Shown piece after piece: positions 1,285-18,071 of a DNA stretch of 18,760 nucleotides (positions are counted from its first letter, which is position 1; each line of letters begins with the position of its first letter). Both the position numbers and the translations under genes were made by a program. The DNA comes from a virus. Its lineage: Duplodnaviria; Heunggongvirae; Uroviricota; Caudoviricetes. The notes under the pieces were generated by a model. The model did not search any database. It was not told where the DNA came from and was given only the letters and a program-made list of their open reading frames with translations. The DNA is taken from the IMG/VR virus record IMGVR_UViG_2563366883_000018. One strand, given 5' to 3'.

Positions 1285-2069
1285 AATTCACAGGTGTTTT
1301 TTCCCATCCTGTGGTTTCCTTGGCGTTTTCTAGGTTTTTTCAGATAGTTGCATTTTTTAAAAAGCATCCTAAGTTCGATCTCAGTGTCTATCTGGGGCCT
1401 ATTTCTGTCCCATATATGCCCCAAAAAAACTCCCCAACAGATAAGTAGTTTTTTCATGGATTTATGCGTAAAATCAAGAACGGCTGGAAATCATTCAATA
1501 CTCACACTATCGAAAAATTTACCAGCCAACCGCAGCACGTTCTTGCATAAGGCGTGTCTGCGGTTTTTCAACTATTCAGATACATCACTCCCATCACATT
1601 CATTCCTCCGCATCAAAGGCATATAGGCTATATCACCTTGATATTTTTCTTCTTCAGATAAAAACTGTTATCTATGTATACTTTTAAACCCAATCCGTGT
1701 AGAGTCTCTGCATAAGATAGTTTGCAGTTGCCGCTTCAGCTTGCGCCATAAACCGCCTGATTTTTGCTGCCACCTGTTAGCATTCCTGTATACCTGAAAC
1801 GACAATGTTTATCTACGAACTTTAAGAACACCCAAGATAAAAATTGTCAACTATATCATATATAACACATTACTAATTCGAGGCTATATGAACAGCATAC
1901 TGATAATCACTTCTCTCCTTATCATGTTCAGCATTTTTAGTCATGCCCTAATAAAATTAGGGATTGGCATATCCAATAACCCAGACAAAACCGATGTATA
2001 AGCCAACATATCCTGAATCAGACATACAATATCGCAATGAAAATCAATAATATTTTAAGGAATATCTTC

Positions 2070-2303
2070 ATGAAATCAAAAGACACCCTAAAGTGGTTCC
2101 CTGCGCAGCTTCCTGAAGTAAGAATTATCCTAGGGGATGCTGTAGTGGAAGTAGCAAAACAGGGAAGACCTATCAATACCAGAACATTGCTTGATTACAT
2201 TGAAGGAAACATAAAGAAAAAATCATGGCTGGATAACAAAGAATTATTACAAACAGCGATATCAGTTCTTAAAGACAACCAAAATTTAAATGGTAAAATG
2301 TAA
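2070..2303 (+). CDS. ydfK: Small prophage protein, 77 aa (cold-shock-associated YdfK/YnaE family)
   Basis: ORF track 2037..2303(+); internal ATG at 2070 is preceded by AAGGAA (2056-2061) and gives the 77-aa length I recall for YdfK; the 2037 ATG has no SD. Confidence 0.75.
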   Translation: MKSKDTLKWFPAQLPEVRIILGDAVVEVAKQGRPINTRTLLDYIEGNIKKKSWLDNKELLQTAISVLKDNQNLNGKM

Positions 2304-2532
2304 TATAATAAACTTACTTTTTTATCATTTTTCCACTTTAACAACATTTTGCTCCACTTTTCCACGACCAAACAACTTGAAATCTGGTTAAAATAACACG
2401 CAACACTATTCTTCTTCCTTGAGTCCGCCCGGAACTCGAAAAACAAACCGAGTTAAAGCCATTTTTCACAAAATCGATTTTGGGTCTCACCAAAATTACG
2501 GGGTTGCATACGCATTCGTTTATTTTCGAACG

Positions 2533-2552
2533 TGTACATACAAATATGTACA
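2533..2552. promoter_or_regulatory. Perfect 8-bp-arm palindrome TGTACATA-CAAA-TATGTACA about 70 bp upstream of pinQ; candidate operator or protein-binding site
   Basis: Read directly from sequence; function not established. Confidence 0.3.
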
Positions 2553-2619
2553 AAAATAATCAAAATTATTTTCTGAGATGCATTATGATATGAACACCAA
2601 TTTCGTATAGAATCTCACT

Positions 2620-3210
2620 ATGTCTCGAATTTTTGCTTACTGTCGGATATCAACGCTGGATCAGACCACCGAAAATCAACGCCGGGAAATCGAAAGTGCA
2701 GGTTTTAAAATCAAACCTCAGCAAATAATCGAAGAACACATTAGCGGCTCAGCAGCAACCAGTGAGCGTCCTGGTTTTAACCGGTTGCTTGCTCGCCTGA
2801 AATGTGGTGATCAATTGATTGTGACAAAACTGGATCGCCTTGGTTGTAATGCAATGGATATCAGGAAAACAGTGGAACAACTGACCGAAACAGGTATCAG
2901 AGTGCATTGCTTAGCATTGGGGGGCATTGACCTGACCAGTCCAACAGGAAAAATGATGATGCAAGTAATTTCAGCAGTCGCTGAATTTGAACGAGACCTT
3001 TTACTTGAACGCACTCATTCCGGGATAGTAAGAGCCCGCGGCGCAGGGAAACGTTTTGGTCGACCACCTGTGTTAAATGAAGAACAGAAACAGGTGGTAT
3101 TCGAACGAATTAAGTCAGGTGTAAGTATAAGTGCCATTGCCCGGGAATTCAAAACCTCGCGGCAAACCATTTTAAGAGCCAAAGCAAAACTTCAGACACC
3201 TGACATATAA
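2620..3210 (+). CDS. pinQ: Serine recombinase (resolvase/invertase family, PinQ/PinR-like), 196 aa
   Basis: ORF track 2620..3210(+); N-terminal YCRISTLDQ motif with catalytic Ser10, C-terminal HTH region; strong recalled similarity to K-12 PinQ/PinR. Confidence 0.93.
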
Positions 3211-3307
3211 AAAATAATCTCGGTGTGAGATGCTTTACGTCTTCCAAGCCCCCTTCCTTGCCGTAAATGGAAAGATACATCTAATTATAGAATTTATATG
3301 TTTTACC

Positions 3308-3883
3308 CTACGGCAGTGCTGGCCATTCAATATCCTGTGCAGTTGACGTATCAACACGGTTCAGCAATACCCGATACTTTTTCCATGCTTCCAGCAACGA
3401 GATTTCTTCCTCCGTTGCAATTTCCAGATCTGCAGCATCCTGAAGCGGCGCAATATGCTCACTGGCTACCTGCATCAGGTTGTTTTTTGTTTCTTCCGCC
3501 TCCCGGATCCGGAACAGTTTTTCTGCTTCCGTATCCTTCACCCAGGCTGTGCCGTTCCACTTCTGAAACTCCCCTTCCGGGGATAACCAGGTGACATTTT
3601 CCGGTAATGGGCCAAGTTCAGAAATAAATAACGCGTCGCCGGAAGCCACGTCATAGACGGTTTTACCCCGATGATCTTCAACGAGATGCCACGATGCCTC
3701 ATCACTGTTGAAAACAGCCACGAAGCCAGCCGGAATATCTGGCGGTGCAATATAGGAACTGTTTGCTGGCAGACCTGTATGAGGCGGAATATATGCGTCA
3801 CCTTCACCAATAAATTCATTAGTTCCTGCCAGCAGATTATAAATTTTTATGGTCCGTGGTTGTTCACTCATTCTGAATGCCAT
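3308..3883 (-). CDS. tfaQ: Tail fibre assembly protein (Tfa family), 191 aa
   Basis: ORF track 3308..3883(-); ATG at 3883-3881 overlaps the stf stop by 1 nt (TAATG), indicating translational coupling; lambda Tfa-like sequence. Confidence 0.9.
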
Positions 3884-6798
3884 TATGCAAGCCTCACAAT
3901 GTAGTTAAATGCGATGTTTTTGACAGTGTTTTCCGCGTTACCAGCAGCGTTAACGGTGATGGTGTGTCCATGTGAGCCAATCGCAACAGAGTGCGTATGA
4001 GCACCAATACCGACAGTATGTGCGTGAGCACCTGCAGATGCAGCTGTGCCGCTGACACTATGAGTGTGCGCTCCTGCAGCACTTGTATTCACACTGGCCG
4101 CAGACACTACCTTATGTACTGACCCATTTTGTGACCACTGGCTGACTGCTGATGCGCCTGTGACACTATGAGTATGGTTTCCGGCACTTGCGGCTGTACC
4201 GCTCACACTGTGCGTATGCGCCCCGGTGTTATTCGTGGATTTAGTGCCGTAATCAAACGACGATGTGGTTTTCGTCCCCAAATCCGTACTGGATGCACTG
4301 GCGCTGTGGGTGTGCGATTTAATGCCGTCCTGTTCCTGAGATAATACGGCCCGACCACTGGCAGGTTTGCCCTTAATCGTCCAGCCACGCATATCAGGGA
4401 TCACGCCTGACGGATAAGCGGTTGCAAGTTTCGGGTAAGCGGATTTGTCAAAAGTCTGCCCCTGCATCAGGGCATAACCAGACGGAACGGTATCTGATGG
4501 CCACGGGATTGGTGCGCCAGGCGGATAAAACTGCTCTGATGGCGTATAGAGTGAATAAACTGTACCGTCCGTTAACCCTTCCGGCTTATTAGCAGAATAT
4601 GCTGGTGACGTATGAATAGTCACGCTGGCATTACTGGTATAATCCCATTGAATATTTACACCAGTCGCATAATTTCCGATTGCAACGTAAATATCGTAAG
4701 TATCACCAGATGTATTGACCCAGGCAAAATTTGTAAACCCTGTCGATGTGCGCTGCCATAAAGCACCAGTAATCCCCTTCGGATTACCATTACCTGCACG
4801 CAAAACAAGTTCAGATATACCTGCCTGTTGAGGTGACCCCACGTTAAATCCCGCGCCACCAATCAACGTAATTGAAACAACAGAACTCGCCTGTGGCATG
4901 GTTACCGTTGCTAATTTGAACCAACCAGCACCACCGCTGAAGGACATTGTTGTTGAGTTAAGCGTACCAATATCTTTCGGCGTCAGTGTTATATCCGCTG
5001 AAAGCGCCTTACCATTCACCTTACGGGCAGAAGGTACCCGACCATTCGCATTATCATTAGCTGCTTTCACTGCTTTCGGTGTCGCGGCAAGCGTTTCAGA
5101 TGCGCTGTTGGTTGCACTACTGAGCTGGACAATTCCTTTTTGTGCTGTCGTAGCGTCCTGAGCAGTATATTTCCCGTTAGCAAGGTCATAGGCTGCCTTT
5201 ACCGACTTTGGCGTTGCCGCCAGCATTTCAGATGTGCTGTTGGTCGCGCTGCTGAGCTGAACTATCCCTTTCTGTGCTGTCGTTGCATCCTGTGCGGTGT
5301 ATTTCCCGTTAGCCAGCTCATACGCGGCCTTAACGGCTTTTGGCGTTGCCGCCAGTGACTCGGAAGTGCTGTTAGTCGCACTGCTGAGCTGTACTATCCC
5401 CTTTTTCGTCGTGCTCGCATCCTCAAGCGCCACGGCGGATGCAATATCCTCTGCCCGTTTTGCCGCTGTCTCGGCGCGCGTTGCCGCGGATTCCGCCGTA
5501 CTTTTGCTCTGAGCTGCCGCCGTCGCACTGCCAGCTGCCTCTGTCGCCTTCGTGGATGCCGTCGTGGCGCTGCCCTTTGCTGCTGACGCCTGTCTGGTCG
5601 CCTCATCTTTTGAAGCAGACGCAGATGATGCCGATGACGCCGCCGAACTGGCGGACGATGCGGCAGCCGTTTTTGAGGATTCTGCGCTGGTTTCCGACGC
5701 TTTCGCGTTCGTCTCGGATGTCTTCGCTGCGGAAGCAGACCTCGCTGCTGCGCTGGCCTGTTCAGTGGCTTCGCCAGCCTTCGTTGTGGCTGTTGAAGCG
5801 GACGATGCGGCGCTTTCTGCCGATTTTCCGGCAGCGGTGGCACTGGCTGAGGCCTGCCCGGCACTTGTTGACGCGGCACTGGCAGACGACGCAGCCGCTG
5901 TTTTTGAGCCTGCCGCAGCTGAGGCGCTCTGTCCCGCTGCCGTCTCAGAAGACCTGGCGTTCGTCTCGGACGTTTTTGCCGCCTTCGCGGAATTTGCTGC
6001 CGCCGTTGCCGAGGAAGCTGCGCTACTGGCGCTCGAGGATGCGTTCGTTTCTGATGATTTTGCCGCCTCTTTTGAAGCCGACGCATCCCGGGCTGAGGTG
6101 GCAGCTTCTGACGCTTTCGTAGTCGCGGTGGATGCAGAAGTGGCGGCTGATTGTTGTGACGCTGCAGCATTCGTTTCTGACGTTTTCGCGGCAGCGGCAC
6201 TGGTAGCTGCCGCGCTTTTTGAGGACTCTGCAGCGGCAGCACTTTTTTCCGCTTCAGTGGCCTTTGTTGATGCCGTTCCTGCGCTGGAAGACGCTGACTG
6301 AGCCGACGAAGCGGCCTGTCCGGCTGACGTGCTGGCTGCACGTGCTGAATCTGCAGCATCAGTCGCATGGGTTGCCGCCTCACGGGCAGATGTGCCGGCA
6401 TCACTGGCTGACTTCTTCGCGGCTGCCGTGTTCTGTGCCACCACGGACGCGTTACGCGCCACCTCTTCCACCATCTGTTCAAAACGGCGCAGTGCCTCCG
6501 GACGGGCATCATCCTCCGTCATGGCACCGAGAAAATCATTCAGCGTACCGGGTTGAGAATCTTCATACACGGTGATGGTCCCGGCATGTGACGGCGGGAA
6601 TCCTTCCACCAACAGAATAACGCTGTACTGCCCGTACTCAACGTCCATGCTGTAACGCCCGGCTTCATCCGGATTTTCTGAGGCCAGCGTGTTCACCACC
6701 ACCGTGGTGCTGTTACGTTTTGCTTTCAGCTGGATTGTGCAGTTCTGTACCGGTTTTCCTGTGCCATCTTTCAGTACACCTGAAATCTTTACTGCCAT
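3883..6798 (-). CDS. stfQ: Side tail fibre protein, full length (about 971 aa from ATG at 6798): lambda-Stf-like N-terminus, long Ala/Ser/Thr-rich central region, three tandem fibre repeats, His-rich HTHS C-terminal domain
   Basis: ORF track 3883..6804(-) begins with GTG; the ATG two codons in gives [26 protein letters not shown] (lambda Stf N-terminus as recalled) and is preceded by GGGGTGA; C-terminus ...[39 protein letters not shown] matches the lambda Stf C-terminus. Confidence 0.9.
5040..5410. repeat. Three tandem copies of a repeat of about 129 bp inside stfQ, encoding ...[44 protein letters not shown] (third copy degenerate)
   Basis: Visible in the protein (three near-identical 43-aa units) and in DNA (e.g. 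5091-5210 versus 5221-5340); boundaries approximate. Confidence 0.8.
5420..6470. repeat. GC-rich low-complexity region of stfQ encoding the Ala/Ser/Thr-rich segment; source of several spurious long alternative-frame ORFs
   Basis: Protein shows reiterated [18 protein letters not shown] motifs; DNA is dominated by GCNGC triplets; boundaries approximate. Confidence 0.7.
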
Positions 6799-6814
6799 AT
6801 TCACCCCACAAAAA

Positions 6815-6836
6815 AGCCCGCCTGAACCGGCGGGCT
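6815..6836 (-). terminator. Rho-independent terminator on the minus strand downstream of the lom fragment: 7-bp GC stem (6816-6822 with 6829-6835), then a T-run on the minus strand
   Basis: Minus strand reads ACAGCCCGCCGGTTCAGGCGGGCTTTTTTGTGG; the T-run overlaps the stf ribosome-binding region. Confidence 0.6.
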
Positions 6837-6862
6837 GTCATAACACTGTGTTACCTGGCTAA

Positions 6863-7300
6863 TCAGAACTTATAACCGACACCCACGATGAAACCGTCAG
6901 TGCGCCAGTCGCCACTGCCGGAGCCTTCATAAGCAATATCAATGGCCACGGATTCGGTCGGGTTAAACTGCACGCCAGCTCCCCACGCCAGAGACGTGTT
7001 GCTGTGGCGACCGTCATCACTTCCGGTCAGCACGTCGTGCGTTTTCCCCTTGTTGTCAGTTACGCGGAGATAATCCCCGGAGAAAGTCGACACACGGCTG
7101 TAAGCCATACCCGCCATCGCATACGCGCTGAACCATTCATTCACGCGCACAGACGGCCCCACCATCACGCTGAACCAGCGGTTACGCACGGAATCTTCAT
7201 GCCAGCGGGTATCGCTGTAACGGGTAAGCTGGCGATTCTTGTCTCCTGCATAGCTGCCGGACCCTCCATCCAGAATGACGCAATACGTGAACGCCGGGGA
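6863..7300 (-). pseudogene. lom: C-terminal fragment of a Lom/Ail/PagC-family outer-membrane beta-barrel protein; N-terminal part and signal peptide absent
   Basis: ORF track 6863..7189(-); frame stays open upstream to a stop at 7301-7303; translation ...[22 protein letters not shown]...AYEGSGSGDWRTDGFIVGVGYKF matches lambda Lom from about residue 85 to its C-terminal F. Confidence 0.75.
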
Positions 7301-8259
7301 TCACCATAACGACTGCCATCTGCATTGATGGATTCACCATCCCGTAACCAGACCCCACGTCCGTTCAGCTCGCGTTTTTGTTCAGGCAAAATCCGTCCTG
7401 AACAGGAAGGACACTGAATATAAGCCGCCTCACTTGCCAGCACAGGATCGGCAATATCACGGAAACCAGCAACCACATCGCCGCAGGGCTGAAAATACTC
7501 ACCACAGTGTGGACAGGGCCAGTACCAGCGACGGCGATCGCCACGGTTATAGAGCGACAGGATCCCCGTGGTTGGTGGAGCCTCATGCGGTGAAGTCCGT
7601 CGCCATTTCACATCCTTCACATCCCTGCCGGGGGAACTCTCCACCAGCGTCATACCACTGGACATAAATGTGGTGGTACGTTTTGAGGCAAGAGAGAAGG
7701 CATCCCCCTCACCATCAATATCTTCCGGAAAACGGTCATAATCCGTCAGCGCCACGCATTTATAATCTGATGAAGACATGATATTGACTGACGGCCAGCC
7801 GATTTTCAGGTAGTTGCCAGCAAGGAATGTTCTGTCATAAACGTTGTTGTCATTTTTGTTCGGACTCAGGCGACTGACCACTTCCGGGCTGACGCGAAAC
7901 GTTCTGGCGAGTCGTTTTTTGGAGTGTTCGCGGGCTTTTTCCTCCGTCATCTGAATGATCAGCATATCAGCAGGATCGCAAATCACGTTGTAAATCACCC
8001 AGCCGTCAATCAGGCCGATAGTCTTGCCGGTTCGTGCCGGGCCAACAAATATCACTGCGTCGTATTCACGCGAGGCCAGGCAGTTCATAGGCTCAATAAC
8101 ATACGGTGCCACCAGCGGATCCCACGGGACTGAGTTCCCTGCCCCCATAGGCACCCGCATATACTGAGCAACGGCATCAGCAACCCGCATTCGTCTCGGT
8201 GCGCGAAGGATATAACCTGAATCGGTTCGTGCTGCCTTTGCGGTTTCCTGATTCAGCAT
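7165..8259 (-). pseudogene. N-terminal fragment of a GpA-family large terminase subunit; the last ~40 codons of the ORF are out-of-frame lom sequence
   Basis: ORF track 7165..8259(-), 364 aa; P-loop GPARTGKT and CPHCGE zinc-finger-like motif as in lambda gpA; lambda gpA is about 641 aa, so the C-terminal half is missing; ATG at 8259 overlaps the nohA stop (TAATG). Confidence 0.8.
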
Positions 8260-8753
8260 TACTCCTCCTGCTGTAATTCCTCCTCATCATCCGCACCTGC
8301 TTCAGTCACCCGCAGGGCTATCTGATCGCGCAGATCATCAATAATGGACTGAACACGGCTCACAGCGGCAGGCTGCAGACCGCAGTCACGTTCAAGAATA
8401 TCCGGTAATGTCTCCAGCACCTGCACGACCGCTTTTGCCCAGATGGCAAACTCCCGTCTGACATCACTGGCCGGAATGAGTTGTGCCGTTTCCTGTTCGA
8501 ACTTAAGACGCTCACGTTCAGACTGATACCAGGCTTTGCGCTCATGCGCGTCCATTTCGCCTTCTGCAACCGGCGGTGGTAATGCCAGAAATGCCGACAC
8601 AATATCAACCACCCGATAAAGCTTGAGGTTGCTTTCATGCCCCCCTGCAACGGGTAGATTTTGCAGCCTTGCCGCAGCAGTCTGGCGATGTACACCTGAC
8701 AATGCCGCCAGTTGACTGATATTCAGCGTCAGATTTTTTAACTCTCGATCCAT
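8259..8753 (-). CDS. nohA: Terminase small subunit (Nu1-like), 164 aa, with N-terminal HTH
   Basis: ORF track 8259..8753(-); N-terminal HTH-like [24 protein letters not shown], acidic C-terminus; position immediately downstream of a cos-like site and upstream of the large terminase; the gene symbol rests on position and on a recalled NohA/NohQ identity. Confidence 0.8.
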
Positions 8754-8899
8754 ACCCGCTCCAGAATGTTTTAAACATGTATCTTGCGAACAACTTTAGG
8801 CAAACGGTGTTAGTGATGAACAAAAAACAATCAGAATCGACACCATAAAAATAAAACCACTGTAATATCAATCAATTACAGTAGTGGTGATGACGAATA

Positions 8900-8968
8900 A
8901 AATTTCAAAAACTAGCCTTTTTCCGCGACGCTCCCGCCCCGTGGCAGGGGCCCCCACCGGGAGGACCC
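8900..8968 (-). other. cos site of the lambdoid prophage (cosQ-cosN-like segment, with cosB presumed between it and nohA)
   Basis: Minus strand reads GGGTCCTCCCGGTG-15 nt-GGGGCGGGAGCGTCGCGG...TTTTTGAAATTTTATTCGTCAT, paralleling the lambda cos junction GGGTCCTTTCCGGTG-15 nt-GGGCGGCGACCTCGCGGG...TGAAAATTTTCC...TTCGTCAT as I recall it. Confidence 0.5.
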
Positions 8969-8992
8969 GACAGCCTGACAGCCTGACAGCCG
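8969..8992. repeat. Three tandem copies of an 8-bp unit GACAGCCT (last copy GACAGCCG) next to the cos-like element
   Basis: Read directly from sequence. Confidence 0.8.
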
Positions 8993-9127
8993 TGATGAGC
9001 ATCTGATACAGCGCTTTACATAATGGCATAGGAATAATTCAGAAGGACATCACAGCATGCCCACACAAATTAGTGTGAGTGTCCTGTTTCTTCCTACGCA
9101 CAGGACTGACGAGCATGAGGGGAAAAT

Positions 9128-9295
9128 ATGCGAACCATAAATGCCTCATCTTCAGCAATGCAACCGGCATCCGAACAGGACGATATTGTAAATTCACCTA
9201 ATTACGAGGACATTGCAGTAGTTGAATTGCAGCTCTGTATTAGCCTGACAGTGACAGAATGCGATATTGACTCTGTCACAGGTGAAATAGTTTGA
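9128..9295 (+). CDS. Hypothetical acidic small protein, 55 aa (below the ORF-track threshold)
   Basis: ATG at 9128 preceded by GAGGGG (9117-9122) with 5-nt spacing; TGA at 9293-9295; no recognisable domain. Confidence 0.3.
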   Translation: MRTINASSSAMQPASEQDDIVNSPNYEDIAVVELQLCISLTVTECDIDSVTGEIV

Positions 9296-9315
9296 ATGAT
9301 TAGCAGTTATGGTGC

Positions 9316-9522
9316 TCAGTCAACCACCAGGGAATAATCCTTCGAATTCTTATCGTGCTTCACCAACGCTGCCTCAATTGCCCTGAATGCTTCCAGAGAC
9401 ACCTGATGTTCTATACATGCAATTACAACATCCGGGTAACTCATAGAAATGGTGCTATTAAGCATATTTTTTACACGAATCAGATCCAACGAGAGTTCAT
9501 CAGCAGATTGTTCTTTATTCAT
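9316..9522 (-). CDS. Hypothetical prophage protein, 68 aa
   Basis: ORF track 9316..9522(-); ATG start with upstream GGAG at 7-nt spacing; lies between nohA and ydfO, where K-12 Qin has ynfO, but I cannot confirm identity. Confidence 0.45.
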
Positions 9523-9822
9523 TTTGTCGCTCCATGCGTTTGCTCGTCATCTAGCGGTTAAAATATTACTTCAAATCTTACTGCATAAAAGAGGAAAAGT
9601 ATGAAAGTTTGAGTACATCGACCTTACATACATCTGTCGGTTGCATATCCCTCCTGGATGCCAGCAAGGCTCAATTTTGTTACGCAATCAACACTATTCA
9701 TTAAAAACAGGCTTAATATTTGACATAAATCATCAACAAAACACAAAGAGGTCAGACCAGATTGAAACAATAAACACGATAATGCTAACTACGCGCCATC
9801 GTATCACATGGAAGGTTTACCA

Positions 9823-10254
9823 ATGGCTCAGGCTGCCATTTTTAAAGAAATATTCGATCAAGTGCGTAAAGATTTAAACTGTGAATTATTTTATTCTGAG
9901 CTAAAACGTCACAATGTCTCACTTTATATTTACTATTTAGCCACAGATAATATTCACATTGTGTTAGAAAACGACAACATAGTGTTAGTAAAAGGACTCA
10001 AAAAGGTTGTAAATGTTAAATTCTCCAGAAACAAACATCTTATAGAGACCTCCTATAATAAGTTGTAATCAAAAGAAATCACATTTCAACAATACAGGGA
10101 AAATCTTGCTAAAGCAGGAGTTTTCCGATGGGTTACAAATATCCAGGAACACCAAAGATATTACTATGCCTTTGATAACTCATTACTATTTACTGAAAGC
10201 ATCCAGAAAATTACTGAAAGCATCCAGAAAACTACACAGATCTTACCACGCTAA
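9823..10254 (+). pseudogene. ydfO: YdfO-like (DUF1398-type) prophage gene interrupted by an in-frame TAA at 10066-10068, with an in-frame 21-bp tandem duplication near the 3' end
   Basis: ATG at 9823 preceded by GGAAGG; the frame is continuous from 9823 to TAA at 10252-10254 except for the single stop; the segment after the stop reads ...[44 protein letters not shown]..., which looks like genuine protein sequence. Confidence 0.65.
10190..10231. repeat. Perfect 21-bp tandem duplication (TTACTGAAAGCATCCAGAAAA x2), in frame within ydfO ([14 protein letters not shown])
   Basis: Read directly from sequence. Confidence 0.9.
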
Positions 10255-10405
10255 ACCATAACGTCTGGCTTCTCTCACTCCTGAGCCGGACTGCATTGGT
10301 TTAATAAAAACCATCAACAATTGTGATTTAGATATTCGGAACCATTCAAATATAACAAAACCCCGTAAAAACGAGGTTTATGGATAAATTTTATTATTGA
10401 ATACA

Positions 10406-10579
10406 TCAGATTAAATTAATCTTGACATCATAGCTTTCAAGACCCGTCATTTTTTCCCGTGCGGTAAACTGAATACTGGTAACTTCTTTCCCGGTCTTTT
10501 TCTTAAGTTCAATAATTTTTTTTGTTATATATTCAGAAATATCTGCTTCTGCTTTTGTTTTTAAGTCTTCAATATTCAT
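10406..10579 (-). CDS. gnsB: GnsA/GnsB-family small protein, 57 aa (below the ORF-track threshold)
   Basis: Manual translation of the minus strand: MNIEDLKTKAEADISEYITKKIIELKKKTGKEVTSIQFTAREKMTGLESYDVKINLI; GAGG 5 nt upstream of the ATG; length and sequence fit recalled GnsB. Confidence 0.8.
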   Translation of the reverse strand: MNIEDLKTKAEADISEYITKKIIELKKKTGKEVTSIQFTAREKMTGLESYDVKINLI

Positions 10580-10750
10580 CATTTCCTCTTTTAGTCTGTT
10601 ATGACTTTCCAGTTACACAGTAAGTCGATTATATGGTGCAAACGTGTAAAAGATAAGATGAAACATCGCAATAATCAACATACGATAGTCTAAATTTTAC
10701 ACAAACAGACAAAGAGAATTTTCCTGAATTATCAATGCAATAGCATCAAA

Positions 10751-10981
10751 TCAACTCAAGAGCCTTATTGCTGCTTCCAGAATTTCTTCTGAAGTAACAT
10801 GTCGATCCGCGGCTACATAAATGACTTTATGATCTCCGGTCAGAGATGGAAACCCTGCGGCCATTACAGTAAGGTGTGTTTTTTCGCCATTTGGATATTC
10901 ACGCATGATGGTGTTAACTCCAGTCATCGCTGGCACTACCACTGCTGGTTCAGAGTTAAAAAAAACTATGATTTTTTTCAT
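10751..10981 (-). CDS. Hypothetical prophage protein, 76 aa, immediately upstream of gnsB (possibly ynfN/YmcE-like)
   Basis: ORF track 10751..11023(-); the internal ATG at 10981 (MKKIIVFF...) gives 76 aa; identity with ynfN not confirmed. Confidence 0.5.
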   Translation of the reverse strand: MKKIIVFFNSEPAVVVPAMTGVNTIMREYPNGEKTHLTVMAAGFPSLTGDHKVIYVAADRHVTSEEILEAAIRLLS

Positions 10982-11252
10982 GATGTTACCGTAGTATGTG
11001 AGTATCCATCGAATAGACACCAAGCAAAAAAGCTCCCGAAGGAGCCTTCATTTTCACTTTTTTAAATCCAACGACAGACGGCTGGCATTTAAGTATTGTG
11101 AAATATTATCAAATGTAATCATCATTGATTTACAAAAGATACATTTTGCCCCGAAAGGATTCATGTCAGAAACATCAAAAGATGATGTTCTATACTGGGA
11201 ACCATGACAACACGGGCATCTAAAGTGAATATGGTTTGTAATATTGTCTACC

Positions 11253-11465
11253 TCAAAGCGCCACTACATGAACAGCGGCAGGACCTTTAGGTCCGTTCTC
11301 AATACCAAATTCAACTTCCTGATTCTCAGTTAATGTTTTGAAATCGTTGCTCTGAATTGCTGAGAAATGGACAAACACATCTTTGCTGCCATCTTTCGGC
11401 GTGATGAAACCAAAACCTTTTTCAGGGTTAAACCATTTCACTAAACCAGTCATTTTGTTAGACAT
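11253..11465 (-). CDS. cspI: CspA-family cold-shock protein, 70 aa
   Basis: ORF track 11253..11465(-); [13 protein letters not shown]...KGFGFI...FVHFSA cold-shock domain with RNP1/RNP2 motifs; followed on the minus strand by a long AT-rich leader (11466 to about 11650). Confidence 0.93.
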
Positions 11466-11826
11466 AATTATTACCTTTTGAAGAAATTAGCCCTTGGGCA
11501 GAATGGTCCGAAAAAAATATCAGAGAGAAAAACCAACAAGGAAATCTCAAGAGGTACAAATAATAAAATTATAACAATGACTGCTTCAGATAAATTTGTA
11601 ACAAACCAGAACACCATTAACGCATGATTAACCACCCATAGCAAGGATTACTTTTGTAAAGAAAAACACAGCAATGAAAGAATAGCTTTATTTATTAATA
11701 AAACGTGTCATTCTGATTAAGACCTTTTATCTTACCCTTAAGATTTCAGGAATTTTGGCTCATGGAAGAGTCCTTTTTATTCAAATTTTACATTCCGCGA
11801 TGTAAATGTTCCGATTTAATATTACC

Positions 11827-12850
<1,024 letters not shown>

Positions 12851-12854
<4 letters not shown>

Positions 12855-13162
12855 AGATATTTATGATGAGGACGCTCGTGCTTATTGGCAGGATTTTCAA
12901 TCTTAAAGGAGTACTGATGCTGCAGATAAGACTCAACTTTTTCTGACAATTTTTCTGCTACTTCCAGGAAGACTTGCCGGACGCTCCTTCTGGCTGCTGC
13001 CTCATAAAACTCCAGCGCAGCTCCTTCAACACGGTCCATGGCGACATCCAGGTCAAAAATTTCACCGTCAAAGCGTTCTTTGTCCTGTAAGGCTACAGTT
13101 ACCGTAACTTTATTCTCAAAATTACGGACTCCTTTCACAACCAGTTCATAGTCTTGAGTCAT
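12851..13162 (-). CDS. ydfR: Prophage protein of unknown function, 103 aa, between holin and endolysin
   Basis: ORF track 12851..13162(-); ATG start with GAGGAGAG 7 nt upstream; recalled YdfR. Confidence 0.8.
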
Positions 13163-13166
13163 TGGA

Positions 13167-13382
13167 TTACTCTCCTCTCGCAGCCTTACGCCTGTCTTCT
13201 TTAATCTTGAAATAAAGATTTGTCAGATACGTCAGCAGGCCAAAAACCAGGCTACCCAGCACACCGATTGCAGCCCACTGTGACGGAGTTACTTTATCGA
13301 GTAACTGCAATGCCCAGAAACCAGCATTACCCGCCGATGTGCCATAGGCAACACCTGTTGTTAACTTATCCATTGATTTCAT
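13167..13382 (-). CDS. essQ: Class II holin, phage-21 S-type pinholin, 71 aa, with dual-start motif MKSM
   Basis: ORF track 13167..13457(-); the internal ATG at 13382 gives [71 protein letters not shown], near-identical in pattern to recalled S21. Confidence 0.9.
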
Positions 13383-13601
13383 ATCCTCACCCCGATGTAC
13401 ACGGATGGTGCAATATGTTTGAAAAGATCGGAGTCTACGGGGTAGTTTTGACAGCACACGTTGTTCTCAACGGCGCTAAAAAAACATACACATTAAAAAT
13501 ATGGGTAATTATTTTGAAAGAAAGTCATATATAAAATAATAATACGAGAAATGTTTTCATATTTAGTGTACTGTATACGGCCATTTATACAGGAAAAGCC
13601 T

Positions 13602-13772
13602 ATGTCAGAACGTAAAAACTCAAAATCACGCCGTAATTATCTCGTTAAATGTTCCTGCCCAAACTGCACCCAAGAGTCAGAACACAGTTTTTCAAGAGTA
13701 CAAAAAGGTGCCCTTTTGATCTGCCCTCATTGCAACAAAGTATTCCAGACAAATCTTAAAGCTGTAGCCTGA
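13602..13772 (+). CDS. Small zinc-ribbon protein, 56 aa (CPNC ... CPHC)
   Basis: ORF track 13551..13772(+); the internal ATG at 13602 is preceded by AGGAAAAG; two CxxC pairs; diverges from the late operon. Confidence 0.55.
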   Translation: MSERKNSKSRRNYLVKCSCPNCTQESEHSFSRVQKGALLICPHCNKVFQTNLKAVA

Positions 13773-13825
13773 TTGATTTTATTAGTAACAAGTATTTTTT
13801 ATATTTTAATAATATATTTAAAGCA

Positions 13826-13853
13826 GATAATAAAAAACCCGCCTGAGCGGGTT
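13826..13853 (-). terminator. Rho-independent terminator hairpin (stem AACCCGC/GCGGGTT, loop CTGA) with a strong T-run on the minus strand; weaker on the plus strand
   Basis: Minus strand reads AACCCGCTCAGGCGGGTTTTTTATT; about 280 nt downstream of the cspB stop and 60 nt downstream of the zinc-ribbon ORF. Confidence 0.55.
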
Positions 13854-14135
13854 TGAGATTGTGGTGCTTTTTGTGGGAGTCATCCACTTACGCACTTTGT
13901 TTTGCCATGCCAGCAGTTAGCTTCTGCTGTAAAACTATTCAGGCAGCAAACCTGCACTTCACCACAATGGTTAGCATACTTTTCCTGATTAAGATTTTGC
14001 CAAATATGCTAGCCATTGTTTCATGTATTGGACCTCCTTACTTTTTATTAAAGAGATCCAATATTCACTACTCTGTCCGTATCTCTACTCAGGCATCAGC
14101 CTTCTTCGTTATCGTATACAGACGAGCGATGAATT

Positions 14136-14351
14136 TTAATCAGTAATGATGACATTTGCTGCTGCAGGACCTTTAGCACCACTCTCTATAGAGAAGGTAA
14201 CCTTTTGACCTTCAAATAAGGTTCGATAATTATCATTCTGAATCGCAGAAAAATGCACAAACACATCTTTACTACCATCAACAGGAGAAATAAAGCCGAA
14301 ACCTTTATCAGCGTTAAACCATTTTACTAAACCAGTCATTTTATTTGACAT
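14136..14351 (-). CDS. cspB: CspA-family cold-shock protein, 71 aa
   Basis: ORF track 14136..14351(-); [21 protein letters not shown]... cold-shock domain. Confidence 0.93.
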
Positions 14352-14651
14352 TCTACATTCCTTAACTTGAGCCTTTCGGCATAAATGGTTTGCATAACAG
14401 AAACGACTTCGTACTTAATTGGAGAGACTCAAAGAAGGAATAAGTGAATAACACCTGAAATGAGAACTGCTTTAGTAAACTACTTCGTATATCGTCTGTT
14501 CTTCAAACCGACGCAATCATTAACGCATAGTTGAACATATGAAGCAATGTTTATTTTAGACATCCAGCCATCTTCAACCCCATCAAAAAACTATAGCTTT
14601 CTTCAGGAACGTGTGTATAGTGCGCCAAGTTATCAGTATTAAGGAATTTTT

Positions 14652-14864
14652 TTGTCCCGTAAAATGACAGGAATTGTCAAAACCTTTGACGGCAAAAGCG
14701 GCAAGGGCCTTATCACCCCATCCGATGGTCGTATCGATGTCCAGCTTCATGTTTCAGCGCTCAATCTCCGCGATGCAGAAGAAATTACCACCGGATTACG
14801 CGTGGAATTTTGCCGGATAAATGGTCTGCGTGGCCCTTCAGCTGCCAATGTTTACCTTTCATGA
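14652..14864 (+). CDS. cspF: CspA-family cold-shock-like protein, 70 aa, divergent from cspB
   Basis: ORF track 14652..14864(+); apparent TTG start (MSRKMTG...); cold-shock domain with a divergent RNP region. Confidence 0.85.
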
Positions 14865-14918
14865 GCTATATTAAAGCTTTAATTTCAGGCCCCATCGGAT
14901 CACACATGGAGAGTTTTT

Positions 14919-15008
14919 ATGAATAACCCCGTCTGTCTTGATGACTGGTTGATTGGCTTTAAAAGCTTATGCTGTACTTTGGCCGTAATAGCTCTGCTAA
15001 TAATATAA
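14919..15008 (+). CDS. Candidate small hydrophobic protein, 29 aa ([29 protein letters not shown])
   Basis: ATG at 14919 preceded by GGAGAG at 5-nt spacing; hydrophobic C-terminal half; no homology known to me. Confidence 0.25.
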
Positions 15009-15156
15009 TAAGCAGACTCATTGTGTTTAGGGACATTGTACTGGAAGAAAACATTTTAAACATCAGGCAAATAACCAAGTCACCAGCTAAATAATAAGTT
15101 AACAGACATGAGTCCCGGGATGAGATTCAACATTACCATTGCCCCATTTAAAGCAC

Positions 15157-15192
15157 AAAACCCGCTCATCAGCGGGTTTTCTACTTTTTCTT
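15157..15192. terminator. Bidirectional rho-independent terminator (stem AACCCGCT/AGCGGGTT, loop CATC) between convergent cspF and quuQ; on the minus strand a candidate tR'
   Basis: Plus strand hairpin followed by TTTTCTACTTTTTC; minus strand hairpin followed by TTTTGTGCTTT. Confidence 0.6.
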
Positions 15193-15225
15193 AGCGTCGG
15201 GTATACAAAGCCCATCGTTGAAAAA

Positions 15226-15254
15226 ATTTTATCCATATTTTTTGAAAAATGCAA
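15226..15254 (-). promoter_or_regulatory. Candidate Q-dependent late promoter (pR'-like): -35 TTGCAT, 17-bp spacer, -10 TAAAAT on the minus strand
   Basis: Read from sequence; lies 32-60 nt downstream of the quuQ stop and about 40 nt upstream of the terminator hairpin. Confidence 0.4.
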
Positions 15255-15285
15255 ACATCATGTCGCCATCTTCAGCAAAAATCAT

Positions 15286-16038
15286 TTATCTCGTCACCTT
15301 CCTCAATTGCGCTTCCGCGTATGCTTCTTCCTGCCAGCACTTTGTTACCAGTTTACCAATGACGTCCGCATACCCCTTATACCACTGATAATCGGTCAGG
15401 TCTGGTACCAGCTTCTGGACATGACGTCGTGCCAGCGTGGTCGGTAAACGACTAAACCGGTTTCCATTACAACGCCCACAAATCTTATATACCGGTACGC
15501 CATGAAACCGGGTTCTTTTTTCATCCAGAACAATCCCTTTACCCTTACACCCTCTGCACGCTGTGCTGGCTTCGCCCTTACCATGGCAATGCTGACATAG
15601 TTCCTTCACCCATTCTTCCTTGATTACAGATTCCCCGCGTCTGTAGTGTTTCACCACTTCGCGCAATACATTATAAAATCCCGTACCTGAACAATGCTCA
15701 CAGCGAGCCTTACTTGCCGCAGACCTGGAGTAATCAGCAAAGGCAAAACTCACGAGGTAAGGAATAATCTGTAACCGGATTTCTTCACTCAATTTGTTCA
15801 ATGTCGGGTTATCCAGTGCCATCGCGTAATTTAGCAGGCCTTCAATCGCAAACTGAGGGTCCTGAACACCAACTTTTGCCAGAAATAAGGCCAACCCAAG
15901 TGGTGCTTTCGACTGCACCATCCCCTGCGCTGCCATTACATCCGTAATTGTTAAACAACCGGTGCCTGCCGCTGGAGCGTCATCGCTCAATTTTGGAGAT
16001 TTTGGGGAGTAATATTTTGGTAAGGCTTCAAGGTTCAT
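15286..16038 (-). CDS. quuQ: Late-gene antiterminator Q-like protein, 250 aa
   Basis: ORF track 15286..16068(-); the internal ATG at 16038 is preceded by GGAG and gives 250 aa; several CxxC pairs (CEHC, CQHC, CRGC, CGRC). Confidence 0.88.
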   Translation of the reverse strand: MNLEALPKYYSPKSPKLSDDAPAAGTGCLTITDVMAAQGMVQSKAPLGLALFLAKVGVQDPQFAIEGLLNYAMALDNPTLNKLSEEIRLQIIPYLVSFAFADYSRSAASKARCEHCSGTGFYNVLREVVKHYRRGESVIKEEWVKELCQHCHGKGEASTACRGCKGKGIVLDEKRTRFHGVPVYKICGRCNGNRFSRLPTTLARRHVQKLVPDLTDYQWYKGYADVIGKLVTKCWQEEAYAEAQLRKVTR

Positions 16039-16051
16039 GCTCGTTCTCCAC

Positions 16052-17101
16052 TTACGCCAGTACGCCAATTGCCAGCGCGCGATCGATAAAACGAAATATC
16101 AGCTCCAGTTGGGAGCCATACTTATCTTCAAATGCCACTGTATCCGTATGCAGCTCGTTGTGATGCTTTCTGCACAAAGGCAACACAAAGAGATCATGTG
16201 CTTTTGTTCCCATTCCGCCCTGCCCGTGACCAATCAGATGATGCGGATCGTCGGCTGGCATACCGCAGCAAGCACACGGCTGTGTCTTAACCCAACGTGT
16301 GTATTTCTCCTTAACCCAGCGGCGACGTTTAGGCAGCTTCATGAAAGATTCCGGAGACTCTGGATCAACGGTGATGCTTACCACCGTCTTTTCCTGTGGT
16401 GATTTTTGTTGCTGGTGGGCGTAAGGCAACGGTGCAAGATTTTTTGTGCGTTGTTTCAATATGCTGGTGGCGGTCTGCTCTCCCGGTACGATGTCGCTTT
16501 CGCGGTACACCGAGCAGATTTTTTCCGCTGGTAATCCCAGCGAACGACGCGATACAGCCTCAGGTAGTGCATCCACCACCTGATTGCAGACCGCCCACCA
16601 GGATAATTCAGCCAAAGATAATTCCCGCTCCTGCGTACCGCTTATTGCGTGACGGATGACGTCAATCACCCATGCTGTCAGATTTTGTTGAGCAAGCAGC
16701 TCCAGTGATTCCGATGTCTGGTCACGCAGTTGGTTGTCGCAGTGCCAGCACAACACCATTGCGCCGGTACCATAACGGTGAATGACTGTTTCAGTGTGAT
16801 GGTAATCGCCATTAGGCCACTGGCAGGATGTAACATGACGTAATAGCCAGTCGGACAATGCGCCAACGCCGCCAGCAGCACGAATCACCCGTTCGTTACT
16901 AAAAAACGGCAGCAATGTTTTGTCTTCCGCCAGCGGCTGGCGAACGGCAGGAACGACTCCGGATGGCAGATTACGCATGCTTTTTGGTTCCGGTTCCACC
17001 AGCACTCGAGGATTATGAAATATCTGTATGGATTCACGGCCCGGCTTAAGGACCACCAGCCCAAGCTCAGGCACCAGAACAGGTCTAAGTAATACCCGCA
17101 C
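16052..17101 (-). CDS. ydfU: DUF968-family prophage protein, 349 aa, with C-terminal Cys/His HNH-like motif
   Basis: ORF track 16052..17140(-); the GTG at 17101 gives the 349-aa length I recall for YdfU and sits 1 nt after the upstream ORF's stop; C-terminus CACCG...HHLIGHGQGGMGTKAHDLFVLPLCRKHHNELH. Confidence 0.8.
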   Translation of the reverse strand: MRVLLRPVLVPELGLVVLKPGRESIQIFHNPRVLVEPEPKSMRNLPSGVVPAVRQPLAEDKTLLPFFSNERVIRAAGGVGALSDWLLRHVTSCQWPNGDYHHTETVIHRYGTGAMVLCWHCDNQLRDQTSESLELLAQQNLTAWVIDVIRHAISGTQERELSLAELSWWAVCNQVVDALPEAVSRRSLGLPAEKICSVYRESDIVPGEQTATSILKQRTKNLAPLPYAHQQQKSPQEKTVVSITVDPESPESFMKLPKRRRWVKEKYTRWVKTQPCACCGMPADDPHHLIGHGQGGMGTKAHDLFVLPLCRKHHNELHTDTVAFEDKYGSQLELIFRFIDRALAIGVLA

Positions 17102-17102
17102 G

Positions 17103-17381
17103 TTACCTCCAGATCCGTTGCTGGAAAGTGCGGGACGCACGTGGTGGGCGTTCGGAATAAGGCAGCCTGACAGAGATTATCCAGTGCCGATAGTCGAGAC
17201 TGAGAGCTTTCTTAACCTCGAACCCGCGCCTGCGGTAAGAATGAATCAGCCATTCGGCCTGTTCTGCAGTGCATGGAGGGTGCTGGAACCATTCAGACTT
17301 GAATGCGTGAGAATACCGCCCGTGCGTGCAGGCAAGAACGGGCGAATTATCAGAATTGTAATATTTTGCGTTGCGTGCCAT
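17103..17381 (-). CDS. Hypothetical prophage protein, 92 aa
   Basis: ORF track 17103..17381(-); ATG start with GGAG 8 nt upstream; stop abuts the ydfU start. Confidence 0.6.
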   Translation of the reverse strand: MARNAKYYNSDNSPVLACTHGRYSHAFKSEWFQHPPCTAEQAEWLIHSYRRRGFEVKKALSLDYRHWIISVRLPYSERPPRASRTFQQRIWR

Positions 17382-17447
17382 CGGTTTTCTCCGGTGGCAC
17401 GGTGTTACTCAGCGGGAGTTCAGCCCCGCGCAAGATTGTAGATGAGT

Positions 17448-17699
17448 TTATTCTCCTGAAAAAGCAGAAAAGCCAGCTTTTATTCCGATCTCTTTCAATG
17501 CCTGTAATGAAGTGACAAACTCACCTTCGCGCAAGATAAATCCGTCCGTGACCCGAGCATCCACAAAATTAATTAACGCAGCCCCATTCTTTCGCAAACA
17601 CATAATGCGGTAATGACTAACAAGATTTCCATTTTCAACGCACACAGCATAGAGGCCATCTTCACAAAAAATTTTACGCAGTTCTTCGATGTTCATCAT
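17448..17699 (-). CDS. Hypothetical prophage protein, 83 aa (position and length fit K-12 rem, sequence identity not verified)
   Basis: ORF track 17448..17699(-); begins MMNIEEL... Confidence 0.6.
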   Translation of the reverse strand: MMNIEELRKIFCEDGLYAVCVENGNLVSHYRIMCLRKNGAALINFVDARVTDGFILREGEFVTSLQALKEIGIKAGFSAFSGE

Positions 17700-17814
17700 C
17701 AGAATCCTTCCGGATAATTAGCTCTCCCCTTTAAGGGACCATCCCTCTTATCCCTGCGCGCTACTTAAGTATTTTTGATTCTATTCCGGCACCGTCCAGA
17801 ACTTCAAACGCGTT

Positions 17815-17847
17815 GAAAATAAAAACAAAAACCCGCCGAAGCGGGTT
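17815..17847 (-). terminator. Rho-independent terminator of the relB-relE-hokD operon (stem AACCCGC/GCGGGTT, loop CGAA, then a long T-run on the minus strand)
   Basis: Minus strand reads AACCCGCTTCGGCGGGTTTTTGTTTTTATTTT, about 70 nt downstream of the hokD stop. Confidence 0.65.
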
Positions 17848-17915
17848 AAGTGCGGGTGCGTTGAGGATGCCTGCCACATCAGAGGTGGCGAGGGATTTCT
17901 CCCCCGCCGGGTCTC

Positions 17916-18071
17916 TTACTCCTCAGGTTCGTAAGCTGTGAAGACAGCGACCTCCGTCTGGCCGGTTCGGATTCGTACCTCGCAGAGGTCTTTCCTCGTT
18001 ACCAGTGCCGTCACTATGACGGTTAAACAGATGACGATCAGGGCGATTAACATCGCCTTTTGCTGCTTCAT
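17916..18071 (-). CDS. hokD: Hok-family type I toxin, 51 aa (below the ORF-track threshold)
   Basis: Manual translation of the minus strand: MKQQKAMLIALIVICLTVIVTALVTRKDLCEVRIRTGQTEVAVFTAYEPEE. Confidence 0.9.
   Translation of the reverse strand: MKQQKAMLIALIVICLTVIVTALVTRKDLCEVRIRTGQTEVAVFTAYEPEE

Follow-up and report, generated by a model that had tools for sequence, protein, structure and literature searches.

The DNA analysed here (18,760 nt, hereafter the window) is a Qin-like defective lambdoid prophage of E. coli, inserted beside ydfJ. Its genes are arranged as in the Qin prophage of strain K-12: ydfJ, ydfK, pinQ, tfa, stf, a lom fragment, a terminase large-subunit fragment, a DUF1441 gene, and a ydfO-like gene are followed by gnsB, ynfN, cspI, rzpQ, rrrQ, ydfR, essQ, cspB, cspF, ydfT, ydfU, rem, hokD, and relE. 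The ydfO-like gene matches ydfO of K-12 Qin in both position and orientation, between the terminase remnant and gnsB. It is interrupted by an in-frame stop codon and contains a 21-bp tandem duplication, and the following features were identified in and around it:

9319–9522 (−): divergent 68-aa ORF, 91% identical to lambda p79 (protein comparison)
9810–9815 (+): Shine-Dalgarno-like GGAAGG, 7 nt before the ATG at 9823 (read from the sequence)
9823–10254 (+): ydfO-like gene (DUF1398/lambda p78 family), here a predicted pseudogene of 81 codons, TAA, 61 codons, and TAA (translation; one base from the intact CDS WP_000035576.1; Pfam PF07166)
9823–10065 (+): the only segment still open to translation, 81 aa, DUF1398 profile positions 1–73 of 119 (translation, Pfam)
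10066–10068 (+): premature ochre stop TAA in place of AAA (Lys82), caused by A-to-T at 10066; the next base is T, giving UAAU (base-by-base comparison with the two closest complete genomes)
10069–10251 (+): presumably untranslated remnant of 61 codons, a perfect match to the intact allele, covering DUF1398 profile positions 77–119 (base comparison, Pfam)
10190–10210 (+): copy 1 of the 21-bp tandem duplication, TTACTGAAAGCATCCAGAAAA (Tandem Repeats Finder and a second repeat search)
10211–10231 (+): copy 2, 100% identical to copy 1 and an insertion relative to the 136-aa alleles (repeat searches, alignments)
10252–10254 (+): original stop codon of the gene, TAA (sequence, translation)
10266 (+): second single-nucleotide polymorphism (SNP), T in the window as against C in the closest complete genomes; lies 12 nt past the gene and is linked to the TAA haplotype (base comparison)
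10358–10379 (−): terminator-like hairpin between the convergent ydfO-like (+) and gnsB (−) genes (consensus match only)
10406–10582 (−): gnsB (GnsAB family), convergent with the pseudogene (gene calls)

The initial annotation, made from the sequence alone, had described a frame that runs from an ATG preceded by GGAAGG to 10254 and is broken only by the TAA, and the sequence and its translation agree with this description. In identical sequence, RefSeq calls the start at the position equivalent to 9823. A further in-frame ATG lies five codons upstream at 9808 (MEGLP...), where the additional segment (9808–9822) overlaps the Shine-Dalgarno sequence; some gene callers use this start, and the gene therefore also appears in databases with products of 86 aa and 141 aa. 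No consensus sigma-70 site was found upstream of the ydfO-like gene, and the promoter-scan matches were below the shuffled expectation and hence uninformative.

The assignment to YdfO and DUF1398, also proposed in that annotation, is borne out by both homology and position. With the stop codon repaired, residues 8–126 of the ORF match the complete Pfam profile PF07166 (positions 1–119, E 1.7e-43, 147.9 bits; curated cut-off 22 bits), and the ORF matches the NMR structure of YdfO (PDB 2HH8) with an E-value of 6.6e-64, in keeping with the YdfO fold typical of the family. Residues 1–81 alone (positions 1–73, E 1.3e-21, 77.3 bits) and the 61 codons past the TAA alone (positions 77–119, E 2e-16, 60.6 bits) hit DUF1398 independently, so that a single coherent protein in this frame is not a chance finding. 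The gene thus belongs to the family that includes K-12 YdfO, YbcV, and phage lambda p78. An intact member would be expected to have an uninterrupted frame of about 130–143 codons, which in the window copy is broken by the TAA, making it a predicted DUF1398 pseudogene and not a functional member. The location is also that expected in a lambdoid genome, between the lysis/cold-shock moron region and the cos/terminase end: the late genes essQ, ydfR, rrrQ, and rzpQ are encoded on the minus strand, and the ydfO-like gene, flanked by gnsB and the p79 homologue, on the plus strand. Together with its upstream ORF, it constitutes the lambda p78/p79 module of the right end of the lambdoid genome, oriented opposite to the late genes.

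At the protein level, the window gene is closer to lambda p78 than to its K-12 counterpart. Lambda p78 (lambdap78, NP_597781.1) is 85% identical over lambda residues 42–177, which span the whole DUF1398 part, whereas K-12 YdfO (b1549, 136 aa, PDB 2HH8, Qin cryptic prophage) shares about 76–78% identity and lacks both the 21-bp duplication and the premature stop. In the phage, the gene likewise lies at the right end of the genome, with the lysis genes before it, cos and terminase behind it, and p79 beside it, and runs opposite to the late operon. In contrast to the window gene, it is intact in a viable phage, has a single copy of the TESIQ segment, and is annotated with a 41-residue N-terminal extension; database entries describe its product as a "putative envelope protein" or "head protein". 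The upstream neighbour also differs between the two Qin-type prophages, being ynfO (DUF3950) in K-12 and the p79-like ORF in the window.

Elsewhere in the window, two gene fragments are directly joined (6863–8259, minus strand), one encoding 100 aa of Ail/Lom and the other 364 aa of the terminase large subunit (GpA_ATPase). This junction is a deletion joint at which head and tail genes were removed, and the prophage is therefore defective, like K-12 Qin. An Rfam scan of the window identified no RNA element in or near the ydfO-like gene. Its matches are located in other regions and comprise the IS009 RNA family (3342–3540, minus strand; full length, 220.9 bits), which lies inside the tail-fibre-assembly gene at 3308–3883, and two cspA-type thermoregulator 5' leaders (11226–11610 and 14120–14512, minus strand; 114 and 159 bits). 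The latter two matches extend from the 5' part of a cold-shock gene through its leader (cspI, 11253–11465, and cspB, 14136–14351, respectively).

DUF1398 and ybcV are mentioned only incidentally in the literature found. When lambdap78 was knocked down, the efficiency of plating was about 1.3–1.9, and plaque formation was concluded not to require the gene, which was scored as non-essential (PMC10695390). For K-12, induction of the ydfO transcript by the ionic liquid [C2mim]Cl, dependent on growth phase, has been described (PMC4077768). The same study also credits overexpressed YdfO with greater resistance to oxidative stress, with reference to Wang et al. 2010 (PMC3105296), but that paper does not contain "ydfO" and reports on YfdK, YfdO, and YfdS of prophage CPS-53. 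The claim thus apparently results from a mix-up of the gene names YdfO and YfdO, and we set the oxidative-stress phenotype aside. As this is the sole phenotype cited for YdfO in the literature found, DUF1398 is left without an experimentally supported function.

Predicted structure and the truncated product

An AlphaFold2 (AF2) model of the protein consists of two successive helix–helix–strand–strand–strand units, the first formed by helices 2–17 and 20–29 and strands 32–38, 43–48, and 53–56, and the second by helices 71–82 and 88–97 and strands 102–106, 111–115, and 121–126. The stop at codon 82 coincides with the end of the first helix of unit 2, so that helix 88–97 and all three strands of this unit are lost, corresponding to 46 of the 119 DUF1398 profile positions. 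As the second half of the fold is removed, the stop is expected to be inactivating. The 61-codon remnant contains no in-frame ATG, GTG, or TTG and is thus presumably not made. We also considered a restart that would yield the C-terminal part, but this can be ruled out, since no in-frame start codon is available and a 51-aa ORF beginning with TTG (10106–10261) lies in another frame. Because gnsB is convergent with the pseudogene, no downstream cistron is exposed to a polar effect of the stop.

The duplicated residues (124–137) affect a different part of the model. They begin in the last strand and extend into the C-terminal tail, for which the confidence of the prediction is low (pLDDT <50 for residues 131–143), and in an alignment with distant homologues the protein length varies freely beyond this region. 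The duplication would thus merely lengthen a low-confidence tail at a position where homologues differ in length anyway, which argues that it is tolerated.

The two-unit architecture raises the question of whether the 81-residue product might itself be a working protein, with unit 1 functioning by itself or restoring the two-unit fold as a homodimer, and the stop representing a functional shortening. In the AF2 model, both units have the same order of elements and the stop falls after unit 1 plus one helix; moreover, many samples contain the lineage in which the allele persists. However, the two halves of the protein share no detectable sequence similarity (hhalign probability 1.3%), and the 61 codons downstream of the stop are still those of the intact allele, as a neutral lesion of very recent date would leave them. 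Clearly decayed forms of this gene also exist, namely one with a frameshift after VTNIQ (about 40 contigs) and one lacking 8 aa in frame. The family itself provides a further counterargument. The initial annotation had named homologues ending at the position of the TAA as the observation that would speak against pseudogenization, and we looked for such proteins among the 221 representatives of this small family (50% identity, E ≤1e-3), many of which are fragments. Full-length members extend to about residue 127–132, the segment past the TAA matches the family, and no genuine full-length member ends near residue 81, the short matches being fragments from short contigs. Taken together, we consider a working 81-residue protein very improbable.

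A related scenario is that the truncated product, which comprises one complete unit, could still fold and then associate either with a second copy of itself or with a full-length paralogue from a different prophage of the host cell. This is very improbable; if true, such pairing might preserve or alter the DUF1398 activity, and the allele would be a naturally occurring "half-protein". The interpretation that the TAA allele is a pseudogene that has lost its function, as predicted from the sequence, is thus retained below.

Origin and distribution of the premature stop codon

The closest relatives of the locus were sought by comparing 701 bp around the gene with 5,426 complete RefSeq E. coli genomes. 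The best matches are gapless and 99.7% identical, and in these genomes the gene is annotated as the intact 143-aa DUF1398 family protein WP_000035576.1 (e.g. in strain 504239 and the O157:H7 strain 493/89). Only two positions differ across the 701 bp, T instead of A at 10066 within the gene and T instead of C at 10266 outside of it. The genomes encoding WP_000035576.1 contain the same duplication and the same neighbourhood, with the p79-like ORF upstream and gnsB, ynfN, and cspI downstream. Over the 432 bp of the gene, the A-to-T transversion at 10066 is thus the sole difference; codon 82 is AAA (Lys) in these genomes and TAA in the window, where the product is cut to 81 aa. Of the 5,426 complete genomes, 441 matched a 76-bp probe with the stop at its centre, none of them at 100% identity, and codon 82 encodes lysine in all 441. 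The TAA is therefore present in none of the complete genomes.

In contrast, the exact 81-aa product is found in 87 blocks of the assembly collection, on 58 contigs (a count of contigs and not of independent lineages). Carriers among NCBI isolates are E. coli KTE193, in which it is annotated as hypothetical protein A13W_05100, GCA_000351025.1, and GCA_013353075.1; others are contigs from several unrelated human-gut metagenome studies. A 5.15-Mb scaffold of GCA_000351025.1 is 100% identical to window positions 1823–18068. All nine full-length TAA carriers examined are identical to the window over the 432-bp gene, and differences in their flanks occur in clustered patches typical of recombination.

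These carriers bear directly on the suspicion that the TAA is a sequencing or assembly error in a gene that is truly intact. That T at 10066 occurs in no complete RefSeq E. coli genome and is a single-base difference from an intact allele would fit an error, but the affected contigs come from different sequencing centres and unrelated metagenomes, and the carriers examined agree in the whole gene sequence and also in the linked SNP haplotype. Indirect support for base 10066 of the window assembly thus comes from identical independent assemblies. Finding the identical allele in many such assemblies, of isolates as well as metagenomes, indicates that the stop is real, and an error is highly unlikely.

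The TAA haplotype appears to have a single and young origin, to judge from the gene sequences compared, with its youth indicated by the lack of further decay in the gene. The proposal of a recent pseudogenization by the TAA in the initial annotation agrees well with these observations, a single A-to-T change from an intact allele, its absence from all 441 related complete genomes, and the lack of further differences among the carriers. The comparison of alleles across E. coli genomes that had been suggested there also recovered the intact 143-aa allele, with the duplication in 33 and the TAA in 0 of the 5,426 complete genomes.

In principle, a full-length protein could still be made if the stop were read through, either in a programmed manner or by an ochre-suppressor tRNA of the host. 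The frame past the stop is indeed open and undamaged, but this is expected anyway after a recent mutation. Furthermore, the stop is not conserved, as it is absent from the related complete genomes and as K-12, lambda, and distant homologues have a sense codon at this position, and the Rfam scan revealed no RNA element in or near the gene that might be involved. UAAU, the sequence formed by the stop and the following base, is also the most efficient termination context in E. coli. Readthrough is therefore hardly to be expected.

Two side observations concern variation around the TAA gene. One metagenome contig (L010, positions 1–660) matches the TAA gene exactly but diverges in a patch upstream of it, with 18 differences in about 100 bp relative to window positions 9170–9290, and, still further upstream, encodes a ynfO-like (DUF3950) gene, like K-12. 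This pattern reflects either recombination beside the pseudogene or a chimeric metagenome assembly. In addition, 891 bp of the ydfT/ydfU region (15764–16653) are missing in two otherwise near-identical TAA carriers (L004 and L008), for which gene calling instead yields shorter ORFs (155 and 152 aa); this is a polymorphic deletion inside the TAA lineage.

The 21-bp duplication and the history of the allele

Tandem Repeats Finder (TRF) and a second repeat search agree on two head-to-tail copies of 21 nt that are 100% identical, in frame, and encode 14 residues. Both the perfect tandem at 10190–10231 and the gain of seven residues that had been read from the sequence are thus corroborated. A perfect 21-nt tandem would be expected by chance about 4e-9 times in 18.8 kb (18760 × 4^-21). 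In the alignment with K-12 ydfO, a clean 21-bp gap falls exactly on one repeat copy, and the segment is present as a single copy in K-12 YdfO, in the 136-aa sister allele WP_000035577.1, and in lambda p78. Among 23 aligned family members, down to 24% identity, the seven extra residues occur in just two 143-aa E. coli alleles. The single-copy state in all of these relatives, including the distant homologues, identifies the duplication as derived. WP_000035577.1 (e.g. in strain E2865) is the same protein as the repaired window allele outside the duplication, but lacks the seven duplicated residues as well as the stop and is the commoner form. The lengths of the two intact proteins match the arithmetic put forward in the initial annotation, 136 plus 7 residues giving 143.

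Slippage during replication is a textbook route to short perfect tandem duplications and is a plausible mechanism here. The microhomology at the junction amounts to only 3 nt (TAC; the unit starts with TTAC and is followed by CTAC), which is weak though compatible with slippage. A form with three copies of the unit was not found in the 5,426 complete genomes.

The duplication is far more widespread than the stop. A 40-mer across its junction is present in 33 of the 5,426 complete genomes, and an intact CDS is annotated over the junction among the matches listed. These genomes include the O157:H7 strain 493/89 and represent diverse pathotypes from human, cattle, pig, rat, and soil sources. Considering only complete genomes with the allele type of the window, about 33 of 441 contain the duplication and about 408 lack it. 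The exact 143-aa protein is encoded on at least 999 contigs (again contigs and not independent lineages). The same duplicated C-terminal segment is also found in a 94%-identical mosaic allele (P0032, representing a cluster of 1,577 sequences), the N-terminal two-thirds of which resemble a different allele (P0060). Although the two copies are still 100% identical, a private and recent slippage event of this genome or a repeat assembly artefact is thus practically excluded, as the same junction occurs in 33 finished genomes, the exact 143-aa protein on the many contigs, and the duplication also in the mosaic allele. The description as an in-frame, slippage-type duplication given in the initial annotation stands, since relatives have exactly one copy; any reading of it as private or recent does not, because, on the evidence of these sequences, the duplication is an inherited, widespread allele of intact genes that is older than the stop.

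Within the same gene, at 9956–9997, lies another 21-bp tandem repeat, an imperfect one (71% identity ungapped, 85% according to TRF), which encodes 14 residues that correspond to two neighbouring strands of the AF2 model (43–48 and 53–56). It could be an old internal duplication or merely similar hairpin sequence.

Since the duplication is found in intact, spreading genes and the stop in one lineage, the duplication came first and the nonsense mutation later, and we propose the following sequence of events. The in-frame tandem duplication would have a single origin in an ancestral allele, with slippage during replication as the most likely cause. It added seven residues at the extreme C-terminal edge of the domain, where the resulting longer flexible tail is tolerated. 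This 143-aa form is still intact in many E. coli strains and has entered a second allelic background by recombination. Later, in one lineage represented by KTE193-type isolates and the matching gut-metagenome contigs, the A-to-T transversion converted Lys82 from AAA to TAA. Translation would since end after 81 residues, with one helix and three strands of unit 2 lost and 61 codons silent. For this final step, a cost-free, selectively neutral loss is probable because the gene belongs to an accessory family and is oriented opposite to the late operon, and because its lambda homologue is dispensable for plaque formation. The other decayed variants of the gene fit weak selection on it. Overall, the locus very probably represents a recent, lineage-specific nonsense pseudogene of a known DUF1398 prophage accessory gene, beneath which lies an older, tolerated 21-bp duplication.

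Read in this way, the locus would provide a clean, well-dated example of the decay of a cryptic-prophage accessory gene, in which a tolerated duplication spreads by recombination before a nonsense mutation disrupts the gene in one commensal lineage. The stop-bearing and the intact duplicated alleles are both already in public databases, and their annotation would benefit from this context. The 81-aa "hypothetical protein" (KTE193 A13W_05100) and entries labelled "DUF1398 family protein, partial" are the front half of a nonsense-disrupted gene, and the 143-aa RefSeq form is a duplication allele of the 136-aa protein. A further group of database entries comprises dozens of ENA contigs of about 3.5 kb (P0061–P0073 and similar), which encode proteins of 180–210 aa whose first ~135 residues are DUF1398 with 77–90% identity. 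Their uniform size of ~3.5 kb suggests that these sequences are amplicon or error-prone long-read data and not real fusions.
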